A stretch of 64,000 nucleotides of DNA from positions 4,434 to 68,433 of the forward strand of contig CAJOJD010000003.1 in NCBI GenBank assembly GCA_905234745.1, given 5' to 3'. How positions within the stretch are numbered: the stretch's first letter is position 1; each line of letters begins with the position of its first letter. The position numbers were made by a program, and so were the translations under genes. Below are positions 41,415-49,076 of this stretch, piece after piece. This stretch comes from an uncultured Bacteroidaceae bacterium. Its GTDB lineage: Bacteria; Bacteroidota; Bacteroidia; Bacteroidales; Bacteroidaceae. Below the pieces are notes generated by a model. It had not been told where the DNA came from and searched no databases. It saw only the letters and a list, made by a program, of their open reading frames with translations.

Positions 41415-41422
41415 TATATTTG
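41415..41422 (+). promoter_or_regulatory. Candidate -7 box TATATTTG for the 41.4-49.7 kb operon
   Basis: It ends 6 nt before the ATG at 41429 and is divergent from the rmuC promoter. Confidence 0.4.
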
Positions 41423-41428
41423 CAAGAT

Positions 41429-42394
41429 ATGATTCACTCAGCCTTATTCAGTATTAAAAAGGGCGCAGCGCTGGCACTTACAGCTTGTCTGTTATCTGTG
41501 GCACTGAATGCACAGGAAAAGATAATCTTCACTCCGCAATGGACGACTCAGGCTCAGTTTGCCGGTTATTATGTGGCACAGGAGATGGGCTTCTACTATA
41601 AAGCCGGAATAGATGTCGAAATCGTACATCCGTCCGTAACGCAATCGGCCATCAGCCGAATCCGCGATAACGAAAGTCAGGCCACCACGCTTCAGCTTGC
41701 GCAGGCCATGGAGATAATCGATGACGGCATACCACTTGTCAACATACTTCAGACATCCATGAACAATGCCATGGTAATAGTCTCACGCCGGGGAATGAAC
41801 CCGCTGAAGCAGGTTGGCGAAAAAGTGGGAATCTGGAATGCCGGATTCGGACAGATTGCCATAGGAATGAGTCTCAAGGAGAATCTTGACTACCGTTGGA
41901 CTCCTTTTGCCAACAACGTGAACCTGTTCATTTCGGGAGCCATAGATGCAACCCTTGCCATGAGTTACAACGAATACTACCAACTGGTTCAGACAGGCTT
42001 TGAACTCAATGAAGAATGTGTATACAGGTTCCGGGATCACGGATACAACATCCAGGAGGATGGCGTTTACATGACAAAGGAGTATTATGAAAGCCATAAG
42101 GATCAGGCACGGAAATTCGCAGAGGCCAGCCGTCAGGGCTGGGAATGGGCTATCCAGAACCCGGAAGAGACTCTTGAGATAGTGATGAGATACGTCCAGA
42201 AGGATCACATTGCCACTAACAGGGTGCTCCAGAAACTTATGCTTGATGAAGTCCTGAGTCTTCTCAAGGACAGAGAATCAGGACAGTATGAGTTCCGTCT
42301 GCGCCCCGATATGGTTGAACAGGCCAGCAACCTGATGCTTGAAATCGGAATGATTGAACGCCAGATCACTTACAATGAACTTCTTGATGAGTAA
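41429..42394 (+). CDS. Orphan periplasmic substrate-binding protein, NMT1/THI5 (SsuA/TauA-like) type
   Basis: A signal peptide is followed by KIIFTPQWTTQAQFAGYYVAQEMGFYYKAGIDVEIV, typical of NMT1-like binding proteins. No ABC permease or ATPase gene is nearby. Confidence 0.65.
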   Translation: MIHSALFSIKKGAALALTACLLSVALNAQEKIIFTPQWTTQAQFAGYYVAQEMGFYYKAGIDVEIVHPSVTQSAISRIRDNESQATTLQLAQAMEIIDDGIPLVNILQTSMNNAMVIVSRRGMNPLKQVGEKVGIWNAGFGQIAIGMSLKENLDYRWTPFANNVNLFISGAIDATLAMSYNEYYQLVQTGFELNEECVYRFRDHGYNIQEDGVYMTKEYYESHKDQARKFAEASRQGWEWAIQNPEETLEIVMRYVQKDHIATNRVLQKLMLDEVLSLLKDRESGQYEFRLRPDMVEQASNLMLEIGMIERQITYNELLDE

Positions 42395-42406: not shown

Positions 42407-44767
42407 ATGAAAAAGAAAAAGAAAAGATCACTTTCTACAAAACTGAGTCTTTGGACAGTGCTGTTCGCCGGACTCATTTTCATAGCTGCAATGGGCGTCT
42501 TCTTTAACGAGTCCCGCATGGCCGTTCAGAGAATCGCCATCAGAAACGCCATGCTCATCCTTGACAATACGATACAGCATGTAGACAACATATTGACCAA
42601 GGTCAAGGTTGCCACCGACAACACAGACTGGCTCATTACCAGGCGTCTGGATGCGCCGGATTCCATGTTTGTCTACTCCCGCCGTATCCTGGAGAACAAT
42701 CCCGACCTTAACGGTTGCTCCATATCATTCGAGCCGTTCTATTTCAAGGAGAAAGGTCAGTATTTCTCGGCTTATTCCCTGAACACCGGCGATGGGATTG
42801 AGACCACTCAGGAGGGCAATGTCCATTACCAGTATTTCTCAATGGACTGGTATCAGTTGCCTAAACTGTTGGATCGGCCCTGTTGGACCGAGCCTTATGT
42901 GGATTTCAACCCGGAAAACATCACATCGCCCGAGATGATCATTTCCTACTGCAAACCCATCAAGGACCATCAGAACAACTTCATAGGTGCCATATCCGTT
43001 GACCTGTCCATTGAATGGCTCTCACAGACCATATCGGCTGTAAAGCCCTACCCTAACTCCTATACCATAATGATAGGAAAAGGCGGAACGTTCTTTGTAC
43101 ATCCCGATACCACAAAACTGTTCTACCAGACCATCTTCACCCAGACCCTGCTTGAGCCGGATACTGCAATAACTAATCTGGGACATGCCATGCAGGCCGG
43201 TGAGGAGGGCTATCGCAAGTTGGATCTCTACGGTGAGGAGTGTTATGTCCTTTACAAGCCCCTTGGTGACACAGGATGGAGTGTAGGTCTGGTATGTCCT
43301 ACAAGGGATATATTCAGCGGATACTATCACCTGGCTAACACCATAGCCGGAATAGTTATAGTAGGCCTGATGCTTATGCTGATGATATTCAGCGGTGTCA
43401 TATCCAAGCAGTTGGAACCGCTTGAGGAACTTGCATATCAGGCCGAAGCCATAGCATCCGGGCGTCTGGACGAGGAACTGTCCGATCTTCACCGGAATGA
43501 TGAGATAGGACAACTGAGTCTGTCTTTCCATCACATGCAGCAGTCACTCGTCCAACAGATTGAGGAACTAAAGATTGCAAATGAGCAGAAAGGACGCATT
43601 GAGGGTGAACTCAAGATTGCGCGCGACATTCAGATGGCTATGCTGCCCAAGATATTCCCGCCCTTCCCCGAACGCGATGACATAGACGTATTCGGCCAGT
43701 TGACCCCGGCCAAAGAGGTAGGTGGTGATCTTTTTGATTTCTACATCCGTGACGAGAAACTGTTCTTCTGCATAGGTGACGTATCTGGCAAAGGTATTCC
43801 CGCATCACTCTATATGGTTGTCACCAAAGCATTGTTCCGCACCATATCCATACACGAATCCTCACCGGAACGTATCGTTTACACCCTTAACGAGGTGATG
43901 TCAAGGGACAACGATTCCAATATGTTCGTGACCTTCTTTATGGGCGTGCTTGACTTGCCTACGGGGCGTCTGCACTACTGCAATGCCGGACACGACGCGC
44001 CTCTGCTGGTGGGTCACACCGGAGCGGGATTGCTGCCTGTCGATTCAAATCTGCCTATAGGCGTAATGGGCGGATGGAAGTTCACCAAGCAGGAAACGCT
44101 GGTGGATCCTGAGACTACGGTTTTCATGTACACCGACGGACTTAACGAAGCCGAGAATATCGGCCATCAGCAGTTTGAAATGACACGGGTAATGGAAACG
44201 GCACGCAGACTGCAGCAAGACGACAATTTCAAGCCTATGGTAATAGTGGATGAGATGATGGGAGCGGTCCGCGCGTTTGTAGGTGAAGCCGACCAGAGCG
44301 ATGACCTGACCATGCTGGCCATCCAATACACAAAGCACCAGGAGGATATAACATACCAGCGCTCGCTTACCCTCACCAATGACATAAAGCGCGTCCCCAG
44401 ACTCAACGCTTTCATAGATGAGGTTTGTGAGGCCAACGGATTCGACATGGCAACCATTATGCAGATCAACCTGGCTATTGAGGAGGCCGTGGTCAACATA
44501 ATGAACTACGCATACCCTAAAGGAACCAAAGGTGACATAACGATTGAGGCAAAAGCCAACGACACCCAATTGTCATTCATAATAAGTGACACCGGCAAGC
44601 CGTTCGACCCCACAGCCAAAGCCGAGGTGGATATCACTCTGAGCGCCGAGGACCGCGCCATAGGAGGTCTTGGCATACACCTGATACGCCAGATTATGGA
44701 CAACATAAACTACGAGCGCATTGACGGTCATAACATTCTAACCCTTATAAAGAAACTGAGCAAATGA
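42407..44767 (+). CDS. Membrane sensor: Cache-like extracytoplasmic domain, HAMP, PP2C/SpoIIE (RsbU-like) phosphatase, fused RsbW/SpoIIAB-like HATPase kinase domain
   Basis: 786 aa with two TM segments flanking ~270 aa. A HAMP-like linker is followed by SpoIIE motifs (GGDLFDF, IGDVSGKGIPASLYM, YTDGLNEA, QSDDLTMLAI). The C-terminal ~135 aa carry an N-box (EEAVVNIMNYAY), DTGKPFD and GGLGIHLIRQIMD. Confidence 0.75.
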   Translation: MKKKKKRSLSTKLSLWTVLFAGLIFIAAMGVFFNESRMAVQRIAIRNAMLILDNTIQHVDNILTKVKVATDNTDWLITRRLDAPDSMFVYSRRILENNPDLNGCSISFEPFYFKEKGQYFSAYSLNTGDGIETTQEGNVHYQYFSMDWYQLPKLLDRPCWTEPYVDFNPENITSPEMIISYCKPIKDHQNNFIGAISVDLSIEWLSQTISAVKPYPNSYTIMIGKGGTFFVHPDTTKLFYQTIFTQTLLEPDTAITNLGHAMQAGEEGYRKLDLYGEECYVLYKPLGDTGWSVGLVCPTRDIFSGYYHLANTIAGIVIVGLMLMLMIFSGVISKQLEPLEELAYQAEAIASGRLDEELSDLHRNDEIGQLSLSFHHMQQSLVQQIEELKIANEQKGRIEGELKIARDIQMAMLPKIFPPFPERDDIDVFGQLTPAKEVGGDLFDFYIRDEKLFFCIGDVSGKGIPASLYMVVTKALFRTISIHESSPERIVYTLNEVMSRDNDSNMFVTFFMGVLDLPTGRLHYCNAGHDAPLLVGHTGAGLLPVDSNLPIGVMGGWKFTKQETLVDPETTVFMYTDGLNEAENIGHQQFEMTRVMETARRLQQDDNFKPMVIVDEMMGAVRAFVGEADQSDDLTMLAIQYTKHQEDITYQRSLTLTNDIKRVPRLNAFIDEVCEANGFDMATIMQINLAIEEAVVNIMNYAYPKGTKGDITIEAKANDTQLSFIISDTGKPFDPTAKAEVDITLSAEDRAIGGLGIHLIRQIMDNINYERIDGHNILTLIKKLSK

Positions 44768-46263
44768 TACCGTTGTCAATCTTCAATATTGATATTTCAT
44801 CGGGCAACCTTATTCTGCTCGTCTCTTTCCTCATGTTCTTGGCCATACTCATGGCAAAAGTGGGTACCAAGTTCGGCGTCCCCACCATGCTGCTGTTCCT
44901 TATCCTGGGAATGCTGGCCGGCGAGGACGGTCTGGGAATAAGGATTGATGAGCTGCGTGTGGGTGAGTTCCTGGGACATCTGGCCATGACCATCATCCTG
45001 CTTACCGGCGGCCTTGAGACTTCTATGGCCGAGACAAAGCCTATAATAAAGAAAGGTATCTCTGTATCCACGTTGGGAGTATTCATAACCATTCTTGTAA
45101 CAGGACTGTTCATCTACTACGCTTTCGGGACAAGGATAGGCGGTGCAGGCGCTTCCATTATGGGATGTTTGCTGTTGGCCGCCGTCATGTCATCGACCGA
45201 TTCGGCATCGGTATTCTCTATATTGAGGACCAAGAGGCTTACGCTGCGTGAGAATCTGGGACCGCTTCTGGAACTTGAATCGGGAAGTAACGACCCCATG
45301 GCATATGTGCTTACCATACTTCTGGTCAGCATACTGGAATCAGTACACGGCTCAACTGGAGAAATCCACACCTGGAGCATCATTCTGTCCGGTGTATGGA
45401 TCCTTATCAAACAGATTATTATAGGTTTTGTCGTAGCATTGGCTTTGGGATACGGAGCTCGCTGGCTGATTACCAGGATTCACCTGCAGTCCAGTCCACT
45501 CTATGCAATCCTTATACTCAGCATCGCATTGTTTGCCAACGGTGCGGCTTCATTCATAGGCGGCAACGGACTTCTTGCCCTTTATGTCTGCGCCATAATA
45601 ATAGGCAACACCAAGGAGATGCCGGCAAGAAAAGAGGTACTTATCTTCTTCGAGGTAATAACCTGGCTCTCGCAGCTCATGATGTTCCTGTTGTTGGGAC
45701 TGCTGGCCAAGCCGTCACAGATGCATACCGTTCTGGTTCCAGCCATCCTGATAGGACTGTTCCTGATGCTGGTGGCACGTCCGGCAGGTATCATGCTCAG
45801 CCTGCTGCCATTCAGAGGACTCTCTTTCAGGGCCAAGTTGCTCACATCATGGGTAGGACTCAAGGGTGCCGGTCCGATACTCTTTGCCCTTTACACCGTG
45901 ATTGAAGGCGTTGACGGATCAAGTGAGATATTCAACATAGTATTCACCATAACCCTCATGTCACTGCTTTTGCAGGGTATGACCATCTCTCCCATGGCCA
46001 AGCTGCTGAACATGAGTATTGACGATGACCCCGAGGTCGAGACATTCGGCATGGAGGTACCCGAGGAGATGGGAATGCTCCGTGACCATATCGTATCACA
46101 AGAGGATCTGGAGAGCGGCGAGACACTGCGCGACCTGCATCTGCCCCACGGCATTCGCGTGATGATGGTTCGTCGCGGCGACAAATATCTTGTCCCTCAT
46201 GGAAGCATGAAACTTACGGTCGGGGACAAGCTGGTGATTATTATGGGCGACACCGATGATTAA
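44764..46263 (+). CDS. K+/H+ (CPA1, NhaP2-like) antiporter with C-terminal TrkA-C/RCK_C domain
   Basis: 499 aa with about 12 TM segments and the SGSNDP motif. The C-terminal soluble domain reads LRDLHLPHGIRVMMVRRGDKYLVPHGSMKLTVGDKLVIIMG. Its ATGA start overlaps the upstream stop. Confidence 0.75.
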   Translation: MIPLSIFNIDISSGNLILLVSFLMFLAILMAKVGTKFGVPTMLLFLILGMLAGEDGLGIRIDELRVGEFLGHLAMTIILLTGGLETSMAETKPIIKKGISVSTLGVFITILVTGLFIYYAFGTRIGGAGASIMGCLLLAAVMSSTDSASVFSILRTKRLTLRENLGPLLELESGSNDPMAYVLTILLVSILESVHGSTGEIHTWSIILSGVWILIKQIIIGFVVALALGYGARWLITRIHLQSSPLYAILILSIALFANGAASFIGGNGLLALYVCAIIIGNTKEMPARKEVLIFFEVITWLSQLMMFLLLGLLAKPSQMHTVLVPAILIGLFLMLVARPAGIMLSLLPFRGLSFRAKLLTSWVGLKGAGPILFALYTVIEGVDGSSEIFNIVFTITLMSLLLQGMTISPMAKLLNMSIDDDPEVETFGMEVPEEMGMLRDHIVSQEDLESGETLRDLHLPHGIRVMMVRRGDKYLVPHGSMKLTVGDKLVIIMGDTDD

Positions 46264-46287: not shown

Positions 46288-46593
46288 ATGGAAGTAAAAA
46301 TCAACAACCAAGACGGAATTACGACCGCACAGCTTATCGGTCGTCTGGACACACCCGCATCACAGGAGATAAGCGGTGATTTTGATAACCTGACACAGTA
46401 TGCCGCAGGAACCGTAATCCTGGATTGCACCGAGCTTGAGTACATATCAAGTTCCGGACTGCGTCTGTTCCTTTCACTGCGCAAGGCTGCTGCTTCAAAG
46501 GGAGGCAAGATCATCGTTAAGGCCATCAACAAAGACATCCGTTCAGTCTTTATGATGACCGGTTTCCTCAATCTGTTTGAGATTCAGGACTAA
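46288..46593 (+). CDS. STAS-domain anti-sigma-factor-antagonist-like protein (RsbV/SpoIIAA family)
   Basis: 101 aa. DCTELEYISSSGLRLFL contains the conserved phosphorylatable Ser context. Confidence 0.8.
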   Translation: MEVKINNQDGITTAQLIGRLDTPASQEISGDFDNLTQYAAGTVILDCTELEYISSSGLRLFLSLRKAAASKGGKIIVKAINKDIRSVFMMTGFLNLFEIQD

Positions 46594-46604
46594 AAAAACG
46601 AGCC

Positions 46605-47669
46605 ATGAAGAAGGCTAGGCAACTGGACCCTCACTGTGAGGCCATCCTTCAGGAATATCAGGATAACCTGCCCCGCTTCAGGGAAGTAGAGCAGGAGGTT
46701 AAGGAAAAGCTCAGACAGACATTGGCCGATGCCGGTCTGCTTGTGGCTTCTATTGAATCACGTGTCAAGGCATATGATTCGCTTGCCGGTAAGCTGGAGT
46801 TGAAAGGTCACAAGTACAACAGTCTGGCTGACCTGACCGACATTCTGGGACTCAGAGTCATTACCTTCTACATAGACGATGTCGATAAGGTGGCATCGGC
46901 CGTTGAGAGACTCTTTGAGATTGACTGGGAGAATACCGTCGACAAGCGCAAGATCCACGAGATAGATAGTTTCGGTTATCTGTCACTGCACTACATCTGT
47001 TCAGTGCCGGGTTTCCCCTACCGTTTTGAGATACAGATGCGCACCCTATTGCAGCACGCATGGGCAAACATGGACCATGACACCGGTTACAAATCGGGTG
47101 TGGAGATACCCAAACGCTATATGCGCAATATGAGCCGTCTGGCCGGTATGCTGGAACTGGTGGATGACGAGTTCAGCAAGATACGCATAGAGCTGACCGA
47201 TTACCGTCGCCGTGTCCAGTCACTGGTTCGCTCAGGCAACCTGGATGAGGTGCCCATTGACGGAGACACTTTCCGCAGTTATCTGGAGCTGGATCCGTTC
47301 GGCCAACTCAACAAGCGCATAGCCGCCATGAACCAGGCCGAGATACAGGAAGTACCGCTCATGCCCTATCTGGCTGTATTCAAAGGTATCGGACTCAAGA
47401 CGTTGGGCGACATATCGAATGTCATCAAGGAGTATTCGGAGGGAGCCTATCAGATAGCATGCTATCAGATAGGACTGACCGATCTGGATATCATCTCATC
47501 GTCCATCGGCCCTCAGGACCTGTGCATTGCGTTCATACTCAAGAACGGAGGCGGCAAAGCCGGCATCAAGTATATGTTTGACCTTCTGAACGGAGAGTCC
47601 GAGAGTAATGATATGATTGCCGAGATGCTGTTGGAACAGTCCAAGGACCTGCCTTTCATGAACAAATAA
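46605..47669 (+). CDS. RelA/SpoT-domain nucleotide pyrophosphokinase (small alarmone synthetase-like) with uncharacterised C-terminal domain
   Basis: 354 aa. Synthetase motifs are intact: SRVKAYDSLAGKL, DILGLRVITFYIDD, GYLSLHY and EIQMRTLLQHAWANMDHDTGYK. The ~150-aa C-terminus has no motif I recognise. Confidence 0.75.
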   Translation: MKKARQLDPHCEAILQEYQDNLPRFREVEQEVKEKLRQTLADAGLLVASIESRVKAYDSLAGKLELKGHKYNSLADLTDILGLRVITFYIDDVDKVASAVERLFEIDWENTVDKRKIHEIDSFGYLSLHYICSVPGFPYRFEIQMRTLLQHAWANMDHDTGYKSGVEIPKRYMRNMSRLAGMLELVDDEFSKIRIELTDYRRRVQSLVRSGNLDEVPIDGDTFRSYLELDPFGQLNKRIAAMNQAEIQEVPLMPYLAVFKGIGLKTLGDISNVIKEYSEGAYQIACYQIGLTDLDIISSSIGPQDLCIAFILKNGGGKAGIKYMFDLLNGESESNDMIAEMLLEQSKDLPFMNK

Positions 47670-47679
47670 ACCTTTTATA

Positions 47680-48246
47680 ATGGCAAACAAACCGCTTGAC
47701 ACCACCCTACTTGACCGCGCCATAATGTTTGCGGTCAAGGCCCACGCCGGCACCGAACGCAGGGGCAAAGGTTTTCCTTATATTGTACACCCCATGGAGG
47801 CGGTCGAGATTGTAGCGACCATAACACCCGACCAGGAACTTCTGGCTGCCGCCGCACTGCATGACACCGTCGAGGATACCGACGTCACCATTGACGATAT
47901 CCGCCGGGAATTCGGTGATCGCATAGCATCACTCGTGCAGATTGAGAGCGTAGGTGATGATGAGGGCACATGGCACGAACGCAAGAAAAAGGCCATAGAC
48001 CTAATCGCAGGTGCCCCACGTGATGCCAAGATTGTAGCCATGGGCGACAAACTGTCCAATATGCGTGCCATTGCACGTGACTATGCCGTACAGGGCGATG
48101 CTCTTTGGAAGCTGTTCCATGCCAATAATCCCAAGGACCACGAATGGCATTACCGCGGACTGGCCGATGCCCTGCGCGACCTCCAGGACACATTCGCGTT
48201 CCAGGAATTCGAGATGCTCATCAATCAGGTTTTCGGCAAGAAATAA
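47680..48246 (+). CDS. HD-domain small alarmone hydrolase (SpoT/Mesh1-like)
   Basis: 188 aa with HAGTERRGKGFPYIVHPMEV..., AALHDTVEDT and GDKLSNMR. These match the RSH hydrolase-domain pattern. Confidence 0.75.
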   Translation: MANKPLDTTLLDRAIMFAVKAHAGTERRGKGFPYIVHPMEAVEIVATITPDQELLAAAALHDTVEDTDVTIDDIRREFGDRIASLVQIESVGDDEGTWHERKKKAIDLIAGAPRDAKIVAMGDKLSNMRAIARDYAVQGDALWKLFHANNPKDHEWHYRGLADALRDLQDTFAFQEFEMLINQVFGKK

Positions 48247-49076
48247 TGGATGCCATAAAGATTTCACTCGACGACTACATACTGTTTGGCGGCGGTGCCA
48301 ACGGTGAGAGTTATGACCATAAGACCGATCCGGACCTTATGCTCAAACTCTATATGCCCGGCAAGACACAACAGCCTCTTGACGAGATGCTGATGGCCCG
48401 CAAGGTCTATGACTTGGGCATCCCCACCCCTGAGCCGGGTGATTATGTGGTGACTGAAGACGGCCGTTACGGCATCCGTTTCCGCCGCATCAAAGGAAAG
48501 AAATCTTATTCACGCGCCACAGGCGATAATCCGGAACTCGTAGGCCAATACGCCCATGAGTTTGCCCAGATGTGTCTTAAGCTCCACTCAGTCCATGTGG
48601 ATACCACTCAGTTTGAGAGCGTAAAAGAGCGTTATTTCCGCCTGCTCACGGAGAACCCGTTCTTCAGCACCGCCCAGAAAGACCGCATCGGCAAGTTTAT
48701 AGCCGATGCCCCCGATACCGATACCGCCATTCACGGTGACCTGCAGTACAGCAATGCCATCTTTGCGGGATCGGAACGTTATTTCATAGACCTGGGAGAT
48801 TTCTGCTACGGATACAACATGTTTGATCTGGGAATGGTATATCTGTGCTGCTGTCTCAGCGAGGAAAGTTTCATCAGGGAGACTTTCCATATGCCCAAAT
48901 CCCTGGCCATACAGTTCTGGCAGAATTTTGCGCCCGCCTACTTCGGATCAGACCGTCCGTTGAAGGACATAGAAGAAGAGATTCGCCCATACGCCGGACT
49001 CAAGACTCTAATAGTGGAACGGGACACAAAACGACCTATGCCGGAGTTACGGGCAGGAATGGATTTTTTGTTATAG
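48246..49076 (+). CDS. APH/choline-kinase-family phosphotransferase
   Basis: 276 aa from the ATG at 48246, overlapping the upstream stop by 1 nt (TAATG). It has the Brenner-type motif IHGDLQYSN and FIDLGDF. Confidence 0.65.
   Translation: MDAIKISLDDYILFGGGANGESYDHKTDPDLMLKLYMPGKTQQPLDEMLMARKVYDLGIPTPEPGDYVVTEDGRYGIRFRRIKGKKSYSRATGDNPELVGQYAHEFAQMCLKLHSVHVDTTQFESVKERYFRLLTENPFFSTAQKDRIGKFIADAPDTDTAIHGDLQYSNAIFAGSERYFIDLGDFCYGYNMFDLGMVYLCCCLSEESFIRETFHMPKSLAIQFWQNFAPAYFGSDRPLKDIEEEIRPYAGLKTLIVERDTKRPMPELRAGMDFLL

Follow-up and report, generated by a model that had tools for sequence, protein, structure and literature searches.

A small alarmone synthetase and hydrolase pair encoded with a partner-switching module in rumen Bacteroidales

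The gene pair and its operon

The window under study is a stretch of 64,000 nucleotides from an uncultured Bacteroidaceae bacterium (GenBank assembly GCA_905234745.1, contig CAJOJD010000003.1, positions 4,434 to 68,433), and it encodes on its forward strand two adjacent enzymes of alarmone metabolism: a small alarmone synthetase (SAS) of 354 residues (46605..47669) and a small alarmone hydrolase (SAH) of 188 residues (47680..48246), separated by a spacer of 10 nt (TAA-ACCTTTTATA-ATG). Both were delimited as open reading frames (ORFs) and assigned with Pfam, together with AlphaFold2 and Foldseek for the synthetase and sequence matches to the PDB for the hydrolase. The pair lies in an operon which also encodes the components of a partner switch, and it is the relation between the two enzymes and this switch that we analyse here. 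A first-pass annotation had considered two possibilities for the pair, namely a split alarmone circuit or a toxin-antitoxin module of the toxic SAS (toxSAS) type.

The host genome is a rumen Bacteroidaceae metagenome-assembled genome (MAG) of 2.2 Mb which is 80% complete, and a contig of a yak-reticulum MAG is 99% identical. The genome encodes two long RelA/SpoT homologs (RSH) besides the SAS/SAH pair, which is therefore an extra, accessory circuit. The locus is chromosomal, being flanked by rmuC and lolE, and occupies the same position in several genomes of the same genus; the GC (guanine plus cytosine) content across it is uniform and unremarkable. Clustering at 90% identity gathers 269 members for the SAS and 134 for the SAH, both being genes well beyond chance. 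In public annotation the SAS appears as a 'hypothetical protein' or a generic ppGpp synthetase, and the SAH as a bifunctional RSH or, in the entries P0243, P0246 and P0247, as a 'myo-inositol-1(or 4)-monophosphatase'. This last label is wrong, as the HD_4 domain and the SpoT-type motifs of the protein contradict it.

The hydrolase is readily classified. It matches Pfam HD_4 (PF13328) with an E-value of 7.7e-17 and 61.9 bits (cut-off 27.2), and the residues H37-P38, H61-D62, E65-D66 and D123-K-L-S-N127 are invariant among 22 orthologs. Its best PDB sequence matches are Lmo0812 (4yf1, E 2e-21), the bacterial SAH structures 7qoc and 7qoe, and MESH1. The protein is thus a single SpoT/Mesh1-type HD domain of ~190 residues with intact metal-binding and catalytic residues, which is what defines a small alarmone hydrolase, and the initial description of a 188-residue HD protein with RSH hydrolase motifs, encoded 10 nt downstream of the synthetase, is confirmed. 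When the loci L050, L058 and L042, from distant genomes, are compared with the window, the SAH shows 73-79% identity and the SAS 49-52%; given this unequal conservation, the two proteins may differ in constraint or history.

Eight genes of one strand make up the operon, with -4 to 24 nt between neighbours, and they encode in this order an NMT1-type binding protein, a sensor, a TrkA_C antiporter, a STAS protein, the SAS, the SAH, an APH-fold kinase and a 183-residue protein. The sensor (42407..44767, forward strand, 786 residues) combines according to Pfam a dCache domain, a HAMP domain, a PP2C (SpoIIE) phosphatase (E 3e-45) and an RsbW-like HATPase_c_2 kinase (E 3e-25), and by NCBIfam it shows similarity to SiaA and RsbW. 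The STAS protein (46288..46593, forward strand, 101 residues) is anti-sigma-antagonist-like (Pfam STAS E 3e-16, TIGR00377 above cut-off) and ends 11 nt before the SAS start; an ISSSGL motif with a predicted phospho-serine can be read from its sequence. Therefore, a PP2C phosphatase, a HATPase_c_2 kinase and a STAS protein with a phosphorylatable serine are encoded together, which constitutes the gene set of a partner switch, and no sigma factor is encoded in the eight-gene operon. As to the remaining forward-strand genes, the first of the operon encodes an NMT1/THI5-like periplasmic binding protein (41420..42394; Pfam NMT1 E 1e-27), the cation/proton antiporter with a TrkA_C (RCK_C) tail lies between sensor and STAS (44764..46263; Pfam Na_H_Exchanger and TrkA_C), and the APH-fold kinase-like protein of the TIGR02172 family (48246..49076; Pfam APH E 9e-13; 227.5 bits against the TIGR02172 cut-off of 228.2) starts within the stop codon of the SAH (TAATG). 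Terminator-like sites in the intergenic regions of the operon are no more frequent than in shuffled sequence, and a sigma-70 promoter scan of the locus yielded the counts expected from shuffling, Bacteroidetes promoters falling outside the model used for that scan.

Domains and relatives of the synthetase

The SAS starts with an N-terminal helix (aa 9-42), which is followed by a RelQ/RelP-like catalytic domain (aa ~46-204) and by a C-terminal domain (CTD). Pfam RelA_SpoT (PF04607) matches aa 52-165 (E 7.9e-19, 68.4 bits, cut-off 27) and is the sole Pfam domain, HD, TGS and ACT domains being absent, which places the protein in the SAS class. The synthetase motifs RVK (53-55), DxxGxR (79-84), GYxSxH (124-129), EIQMRT (142-147) and HDxGYK (158-163) are all retained, as the first-pass annotation had recognised, and the key residues R53, K55, D79, G82, R84, Y125, E142, Q144 and R146 are in fact invariant among 33 SAS orthologs. 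An AlphaFold2 model built from the alignment of these 33 sequences has a predicted local distance difference test score (pLDDT) of 89.3, and with Foldseek its N-terminal 200 residues superpose on RelQ/RelP of B. subtilis and S. aureus with E-values down to 6e-9 and target-normalised template-modelling (TM) scores of 0.78-0.84, CapRel and the long RSH proteins following far behind. Indeed, a family profile of the SAS searched against all PDB sequences ranks RelQ/RelP (5e-19 to 2e-16) well ahead of CapRel (8e-5), and, long RSH aside, no SAS chain of the PDB other than these was matched.

These results bear on the class to which the synthetase belongs. Judged by a proxy, namely the profile against PDB chains and our own tree instead of the published RSH subfamily models, the SAS does not fall into any of the validated toxSAS subfamilies (FaRel, FaRel2, PhRel, PhRel2 and CapRel), its catalytic domain scoring far nearer to RelQ/RelP than to the toxSAS of solved structure; by this measure the suggestion of a toxSAS-type synthetase is not supported. 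The RelQ/RelP proteins of Firmicutes (SAS1/SAS2, YjbM/YwaC) share all catalytic motifs with the SAS and provide its best sequence and fold match, but the identity to them is only ~25%, and they lack the extra 150-residue CTD and the partner switch and SAH context. Neither is the protein a housekeeping SAS, a class which consists of single-domain proteins of about 210-230 residues: at 354 residues and with its CTD, it scores 57 bits with the RelQ/RelP equivalog NF053588, against a cut-off of 320. We also considered the PADLOC class PDC-S33, whose match covers the synthetase core in the SAS and in all its relatives, and rejected membership, as the match is confined to this generic core.

Concerning the reaction, the enzyme most likely transfers a 3'-pyrophosphate from ATP to GTP, GDP or GMP, and the likeness of its core to RelQ/RelP speaks slightly for pGpp or (p)ppGpp as the product. 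Our literature search gave no usable residue-level rules for telling (p)ppGpp, (p)ppApp and tRNA acceptors apart, and we agree with the earlier opinion that the sequence does not tell which product is made.

A rather different picture emerges for the CTD (aa 205-354; 47217..47666, forward strand), which is mostly α-helical in the AlphaFold2 model and which we propose to be a regulatory or docking domain. Modelled by itself it reaches a pLDDT of 92.7 and a predicted TM score of 0.87. No Pfam family matches aa 205-354, so that the domain of about 150 residues left unassigned at first remains without a family name, and Foldseek searches with the CTD model return no match in the PDB (best E 2.2) or among the viral structures of BFVD: the structure prediction and fold search proposed earlier have therefore given a confident fold, but no structural relative. 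A search of 1.84 billion cluster representatives retrieved only 106 matches to the CTD, mostly C-termini of ~350-residue proteins or short fragments, and all five of the ~350-residue proteins that were scanned contain RelA_SpoT. Two matches were set aside, P0127 (an amidohydrolase N-terminus joined to the SAS CTD) as a chimera or gene remnant and P0190 (an LRR/COR protein) as a spurious repeat match. The mean pairwise identity among orthologs is 52% for the CTD and 66% for the catalytic core. A CTD that is both folded and conserved to this extent fits a conserved cellular partner.

The SAS has numerous relatives in viral collections. Its best match among the PHROG families is phrog_9640 (E 2.9e-56), which is listed as of 'unknown function', and at least 110 contigs of IMG/VR, with GC contents of 32-63%, encode homologs of 350-375 residues and 30-45% identity (L079-L158 among them). 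None of these homologs has an SAH, STAS, PP2C/kinase or APH-like neighbour. They are flanked instead by conserved clusters of ORFs on the strand opposite to the SAS, which by eye, no family search having been run on them, resemble tail-completion and baseplate genes of P2 type, as well as integrases; in one group the SAS+CTD gene is placed, on the opposite strand, between the genes resembling those for tail completion and baseplate. In GenBank, relatives are found in a Mycobacterium abscessus prophage, beside a holin gene (MW584157.1, gp42), and as cargo of a Vibrio inovirus (PQ189320.1, gene 12). A profile-profile comparison of the clade to which the window belongs with these prophage relatives detects homology over 327 columns (E 2.7e-76), and hhalign of the two CTDs alone gives a probability of 95% (E 2.6e-8), corresponding to remote homology. 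The homology thus spans both domains, and the SAS+CTD architecture is therefore ancestral. A profile of the wider family retains the preference for RelQ/RelP (9e-24) over CapRel (4e-7) in the PDB, and PADLOC v2 has no dedicated model for the prophage SAS+CTD family, which it meets only with the partial PDC-S33 match. In a tree rooted on Firmicute RelQ/RelP, the Bacteroidales and Fibrobacter proteins form one clade (100% support in the Shimodaira-Hasegawa-like approximate likelihood-ratio test, SH-aLRT) on a long stem of 1.19 substitutions per site, and the placement of this clade within the homologs from viral contigs has 94% support. The distant relatives were sampled from viral collections only, and hence this sample does not give the chromosomal share of the wider family. 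As the SAS+CTD architecture is common to a large prophage-borne family, a toxSAS-like ancestry is plausible, and to this extent the link to toxSAS proposed in the first-pass annotation holds; for the present locus as a toxin-antitoxin or CapRel-type module it finds little support.

Such relatives raise the question of whether the SAS could be a fused abortive-infection effector resembling CapRel(SJ46), the anti-phage fused toxSAS-antitoxin, in which case the CTD would auto-inhibit the synthetase until released by a phage protein, and the SAH and the partner switch would limit collateral damage. The resemblance is one of layout, since both are single polypeptides of ~350-370 residues with an N-terminal synthetase and a C-terminal domain of regulatory size, a layout also seen in the more than 100 solitary homologs on prophage contigs, and since relatives of the SAS occupy accessory-gene sites of prophages; the remote homology to the CTD of the prophage-contig homologs and the PDC-S33 match to the catalytic part point the same way. 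However, the similarity to CapRel is weak and the CapRel structure 7ztb aligns to the catalytic part only, the CTD having an unrelated fold, while the PADLOC match is limited to the generic core. Furthermore, the CTD is conserved across genera within the Bacteroidales clade, in contrast to the nearly all-variable consensus of the prophage relatives, and is not hypervariable. The locus is found neither in a prophage nor in a defence island or hotspot, as would be typical of CapRel, but on the chromosome within a signalling operon, whose extracytoplasmic dCache sensor and periplasmic binding protein point to the sensing of small molecules. We thus consider a CapRel-like effector highly improbable.

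Distribution and gene neighbourhoods

We have scanned 201 genomes of the same family (Bacteroidaceae), representing 35 genera, and found SAS orthologs in 24 genomes of 8 genera. SAH orthologs occur in 19 genomes, every one of which also has the SAS, and an orphan SAH was not found. The opposite situation does occur: 5 of the 24 SAS genomes, each at least 92% complete, have no SAH ortholog, and in 4 of these 5 the SAS is intact, the fifth having an in-frame stop in it. Each of the 24 SAS genomes also has the sensor family, which among the 177 others occurs in 36 (60 of 201 in total). One SAS ortholog (G142:C14:26203-27282, locus L016) carries an in-frame TAG and may be a decaying gene; its genome is 98% complete and has no SAH ortholog, and no partner-switch gene lies nearby.

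The gene neighbourhoods were compared in 56 non-redundant SAS loci of 48-99% identity, taking 8 kb as the neighbourhood. These loci come from Prevotella and other Bacteroidales, and include two from Fibrobacter, one from Alistipes and one from a MAG labelled Clostridia. A STAS protein and/or a PP2C/kinase is encoded near the SAS in 42 of the 56 loci, a PP2C-kinase or a separate kinase-domain homolog in 36, and in 18 the STAS gene lies directly upstream of the SAS on the same strand. The SAH is within reach in 36 loci and not in the other 20; it is adjacent to the SAS in 31 (23 downstream, 7 upstream and 1 overlapping), so that immediate adjacency is commoner for the SAH than for the STAS (19/56). 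The partner switch occurs without a nearby SAH in 12 loci, the SAH without a partner switch in 6, and neither of them in 8. By our own estimate, proximity of SAS and partner switch would be expected by chance in a few percent of the loci, the sensor family having a few copies per roughly 3-Mb genome.

The association of the SAS with the partner switch outlasts rearrangements of gene order, which has been repeatedly shuffled: for instance, the sensor follows the SAS in L008 and L010, and in L013 the SAH comes before the binding protein. The cultured Prevotella sp. P6B1 has sensor, STAS and SAS genes that run into one another, each stop codon overlapping the next start; an SAH is not found near them, but an SAH ortholog is encoded elsewhere in the genome. 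On the SAS tree, the deepest branches and every major subclade show partner-switch linkage, and parsimony accounts for it with 1 gain and 5 losses. Gene fusions were encountered as well. At L017:8024-9712 (+) a single ORF of 562 residues encodes SAH, SAS and CTD in the HD-SYNTH order of the N-terminal half of long Rel proteins; in L018, from a genome of the same genus, SAH and SAS are in different frames. A protein of 521 residues (P0131) carries an RsbW-like HATPase_c_2 domain fused to SAS+CTD, which may be a real fusion between functionally linked genes or the product of a lost stop codon; being a singleton cluster on one 23.8-kb NCBI contig, it is weak evidence and we have given it little weight.

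This distribution allows the alternatives for the gene pair to be weighed. Since the SAH always co-occurs with the SAS and is adjacent to it in more than half of the loci, the two are functionally linked, and the proposal of a split synthetase/hydrolase circuit is supported. It may be asked whether the link is that of a toxin with its antitoxin (type IV, toxSAS) or of a defence pair, the SAS being a growth-arresting toxin that makes ppApp, (p)ppGpp or pyrophosphorylated tRNA, the SAH its antitoxin and the other operon genes incidental. The precedent is FaRel-ATfaRel of Cellulomonas marina, a toxSAS with an SAH antitoxin, and SAH antitoxins are documented for all tested toxSAS (PMC7229694). As in that system, a SAS is encoded beside a small HD hydrolase able to reverse its product, here only 10 nt away; moreover, the SAH never occurs without the SAS in the genomes scanned, the distribution over 8 of 35 genera is patchy, and the family otherwise resides at prophage accessory-gene sites, the clade nesting among those homologs. 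Nevertheless, we regard a toxin-antitoxin pair as unlikely. The geometry, at first described as exactly that of a toxin-antitoxin pair, is not maintained in all loci: in about a third of them the SAH is dispensable or unlinked, and of five genomes without SAH near the SAS that were checked, three have it unlinked elsewhere and two lack it. Orphan genes are frequent for the SAS but were not found for the SAH, whereas toxin-antitoxin systems usually show the opposite. The dominant conserved partner is the STAS/PP2C-kinase module, as inferred from its presence in 42 loci against 36 for the SAH, and the uniform GC content, the rmuC-lolE position common to several same-genus genomes and the distance in score from every solved toxSAS also speak against this reading.

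The other genes of the operon are less constant. The NMT1-type binding protein precedes the sensor in 11 of the 56 loci, and the insertion of the TrkA_C antiporter is lineage-specific (6/56). The APH-fold kinase is found within 8 kb of the SAS in 23 loci, usually right after the SAH, as for example in L027-L035, L059 and L062; the unlinked SAH of L075 also has an APH-like neighbour. Sensor-STAS modules which are paralogous and have no SAS (L064-L068 and L071) bracket, at the position which the antiporter takes in the window, CitMHS/SLC13-type transporters of 595-600 residues with two TrkA_C domains. An Asp-Al_Ex/TrkA_C permease lies near the paralogous module of L065. This arrangement echoes the antiporter of the window.

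The transporters suggest another alternative, according to which the SAS and SAH would be ordinary accessory enzymes tuning basal (p)ppGpp beside the two long RSH proteins, and the partner switch would target TrkA_C transporters without directly regulating the SAS. In its favour are the likeness of the catalytic domain, in sequence and fold, to the non-toxic RelQ/RelP, the two long RSH proteins already present in the genome, the TrkA_C transporters of the SAS-less modules and the position of the antiporter between sensor and STAS in the window operon. It leaves unexplained, however, the conserved 150-residue CTD unique to the family, the translational coupling of STAS and SAS in many genomes whose operon has no transporter, and a linkage which persists through many rearrangements; besides, the transporter accompanies the SAS in few of the loci. 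We therefore find this alternative as improbable as that of a toxin-antitoxin pair.

A partner switch with an alarmone synthetase as its putative output

What has been observed here are the gene content, the intact motifs, the statistics of synteny, the homology and the phylogeny, and the reading that we favour, with moderate confidence, is that a partner switch has recruited a prophage-type SAS+CTD as its output, the SAH being the enzyme that resets it, and that the locus is not a stand-alone toxin-antitoxin module. The co-occurrence of SAH and SAS at the genome level, even when they are unlinked, also counts for a signalling role. The support from synteny is unusually strong, and it is from gene linkage that we infer the regulation of the SAS by the switch; the contact between STAS or kinase and SAS, whether the control is positive or negative, and the nature of product and signal are likewise inferred.

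In the mechanism that we propose, the dCache-HAMP sensor would read a periplasmic signal, possibly together with the NMT1-type binding protein, and this signal would set the balance between the PP2C phosphatase and the RsbW-like kinase and, through it, the phosphorylation state of the STAS protein, whose predicted phosphosite is Ser55 in the ISSSGL motif by analogy with SpoIIAA and RsbV. The STAS protein, or the kinase domain for which it competes, would then bind the SAS and turn synthesis on or off, the conserved and family-specific CTD being the likely docking site, and the SAH would remove the alarmone product and reset the system. As to its origin, the ancestral SAS+CTD may be pictured as a solitary prophage accessory gene, probably self-regulated and growth-arresting, which would have been recruited into the partner-switch operon in the Bacteroidales/Fibrobacter clade. 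An alternative wording is equally compatible with the data, namely that the STAS protein, under the control of its phosphorylation, inhibits a potentially growth-arresting SAS in the manner of an antitoxin. A more specific version may be put forward only tentatively: that this is the first partner switch with a RelA/SpoT-type output, in which the STAS protein, as an antitoxin-like regulator governed by phosphorylation, would dock on the structurally novel CTD of a self-regulated, growth-arresting SAS of prophage type that was domesticated in rumen Bacteroidales, in which the SAH would reset the system, and in which the product might gate the RCK_C (TrkA_C) antiporter.

Several points weigh against the recruitment of the SAS as a partner-switch output. 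Co-transcription alone could account for the linkage between the SAS and the partner switch, and 14 of the 56 loci, including both from Fibrobacter, have no partner-switch gene within 8 kb. The singleton kinase-SAS fusion could be an assembly or frameshift artefact. As the SAS-less modules bracket TrkA_C transporters, transport may be the primary output and the SAS a passenger. Finally, the closest relatives that the clade has elsewhere are accessory genes of prophages, which suggests toxicity or defence.

The closest parallel to the proposed circuit is SiaABCD of Pseudomonas aeruginosa, a partner switch in which the STAS-like SiaC controls a diguanylate cyclase. Both combine the genes of a PP2C sensor phosphatase, of a kinase resembling RsbW and of a protein of STAS type with that of a nucleotide second-messenger synthetase, and neither includes a sigma factor; here, however, the putative output enzyme is a RelA/SpoT-type pyrophosphokinase and not a GGDEF cyclase, phosphatase and kinase are fused, and the interaction is a proposed one. 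The pair of enzymes also recalls the long bifunctional Rel/SpoT proteins, in which a hydrolase and a synthetase likewise act in opposite directions on one messenger, and which one genome mimics with its HD-SYNTH fusion of SAH and SAS. Unlike these, the pair in the window has no TGS, ACT or ribosome-binding domains, and its regulation would involve the novel CTD and the putative partner switch.

Partner switches are well known, and so are enzymes of the SAS and SAH classes, but searches of the literature library used here, full-text ones included, found no paper that links partner switching or STAS proteins with alarmone synthetases, and the linkage described here suggests that alarmone synthesis may be gated in a way not described before. 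To our knowledge, little has been learnt about how SAS enzymes are controlled apart from their transcription, allostery by pppGpp, and triggers of toxin-antitoxin or phage type. The idea is testable, as the cultured Prevotella sp. P6B1 carries a minimal sensor-STAS-SAS operon, and the CTD offers a confidently predicted domain for which the model search found no structural relative. If the proposal is true, it would provide a new input route to stringent-type signalling, from an extracytoplasmic sensor through a partner switch to a SAS, and would add to sigma factors and diguanylate cyclases a new class of partner-switch output; it would also represent the domestication of a prophage growth-arrest enzyme into host signalling, and this in the dominant Prevotella-type Bacteroidales of the rumen and gut, where alarmone control has been little studied.

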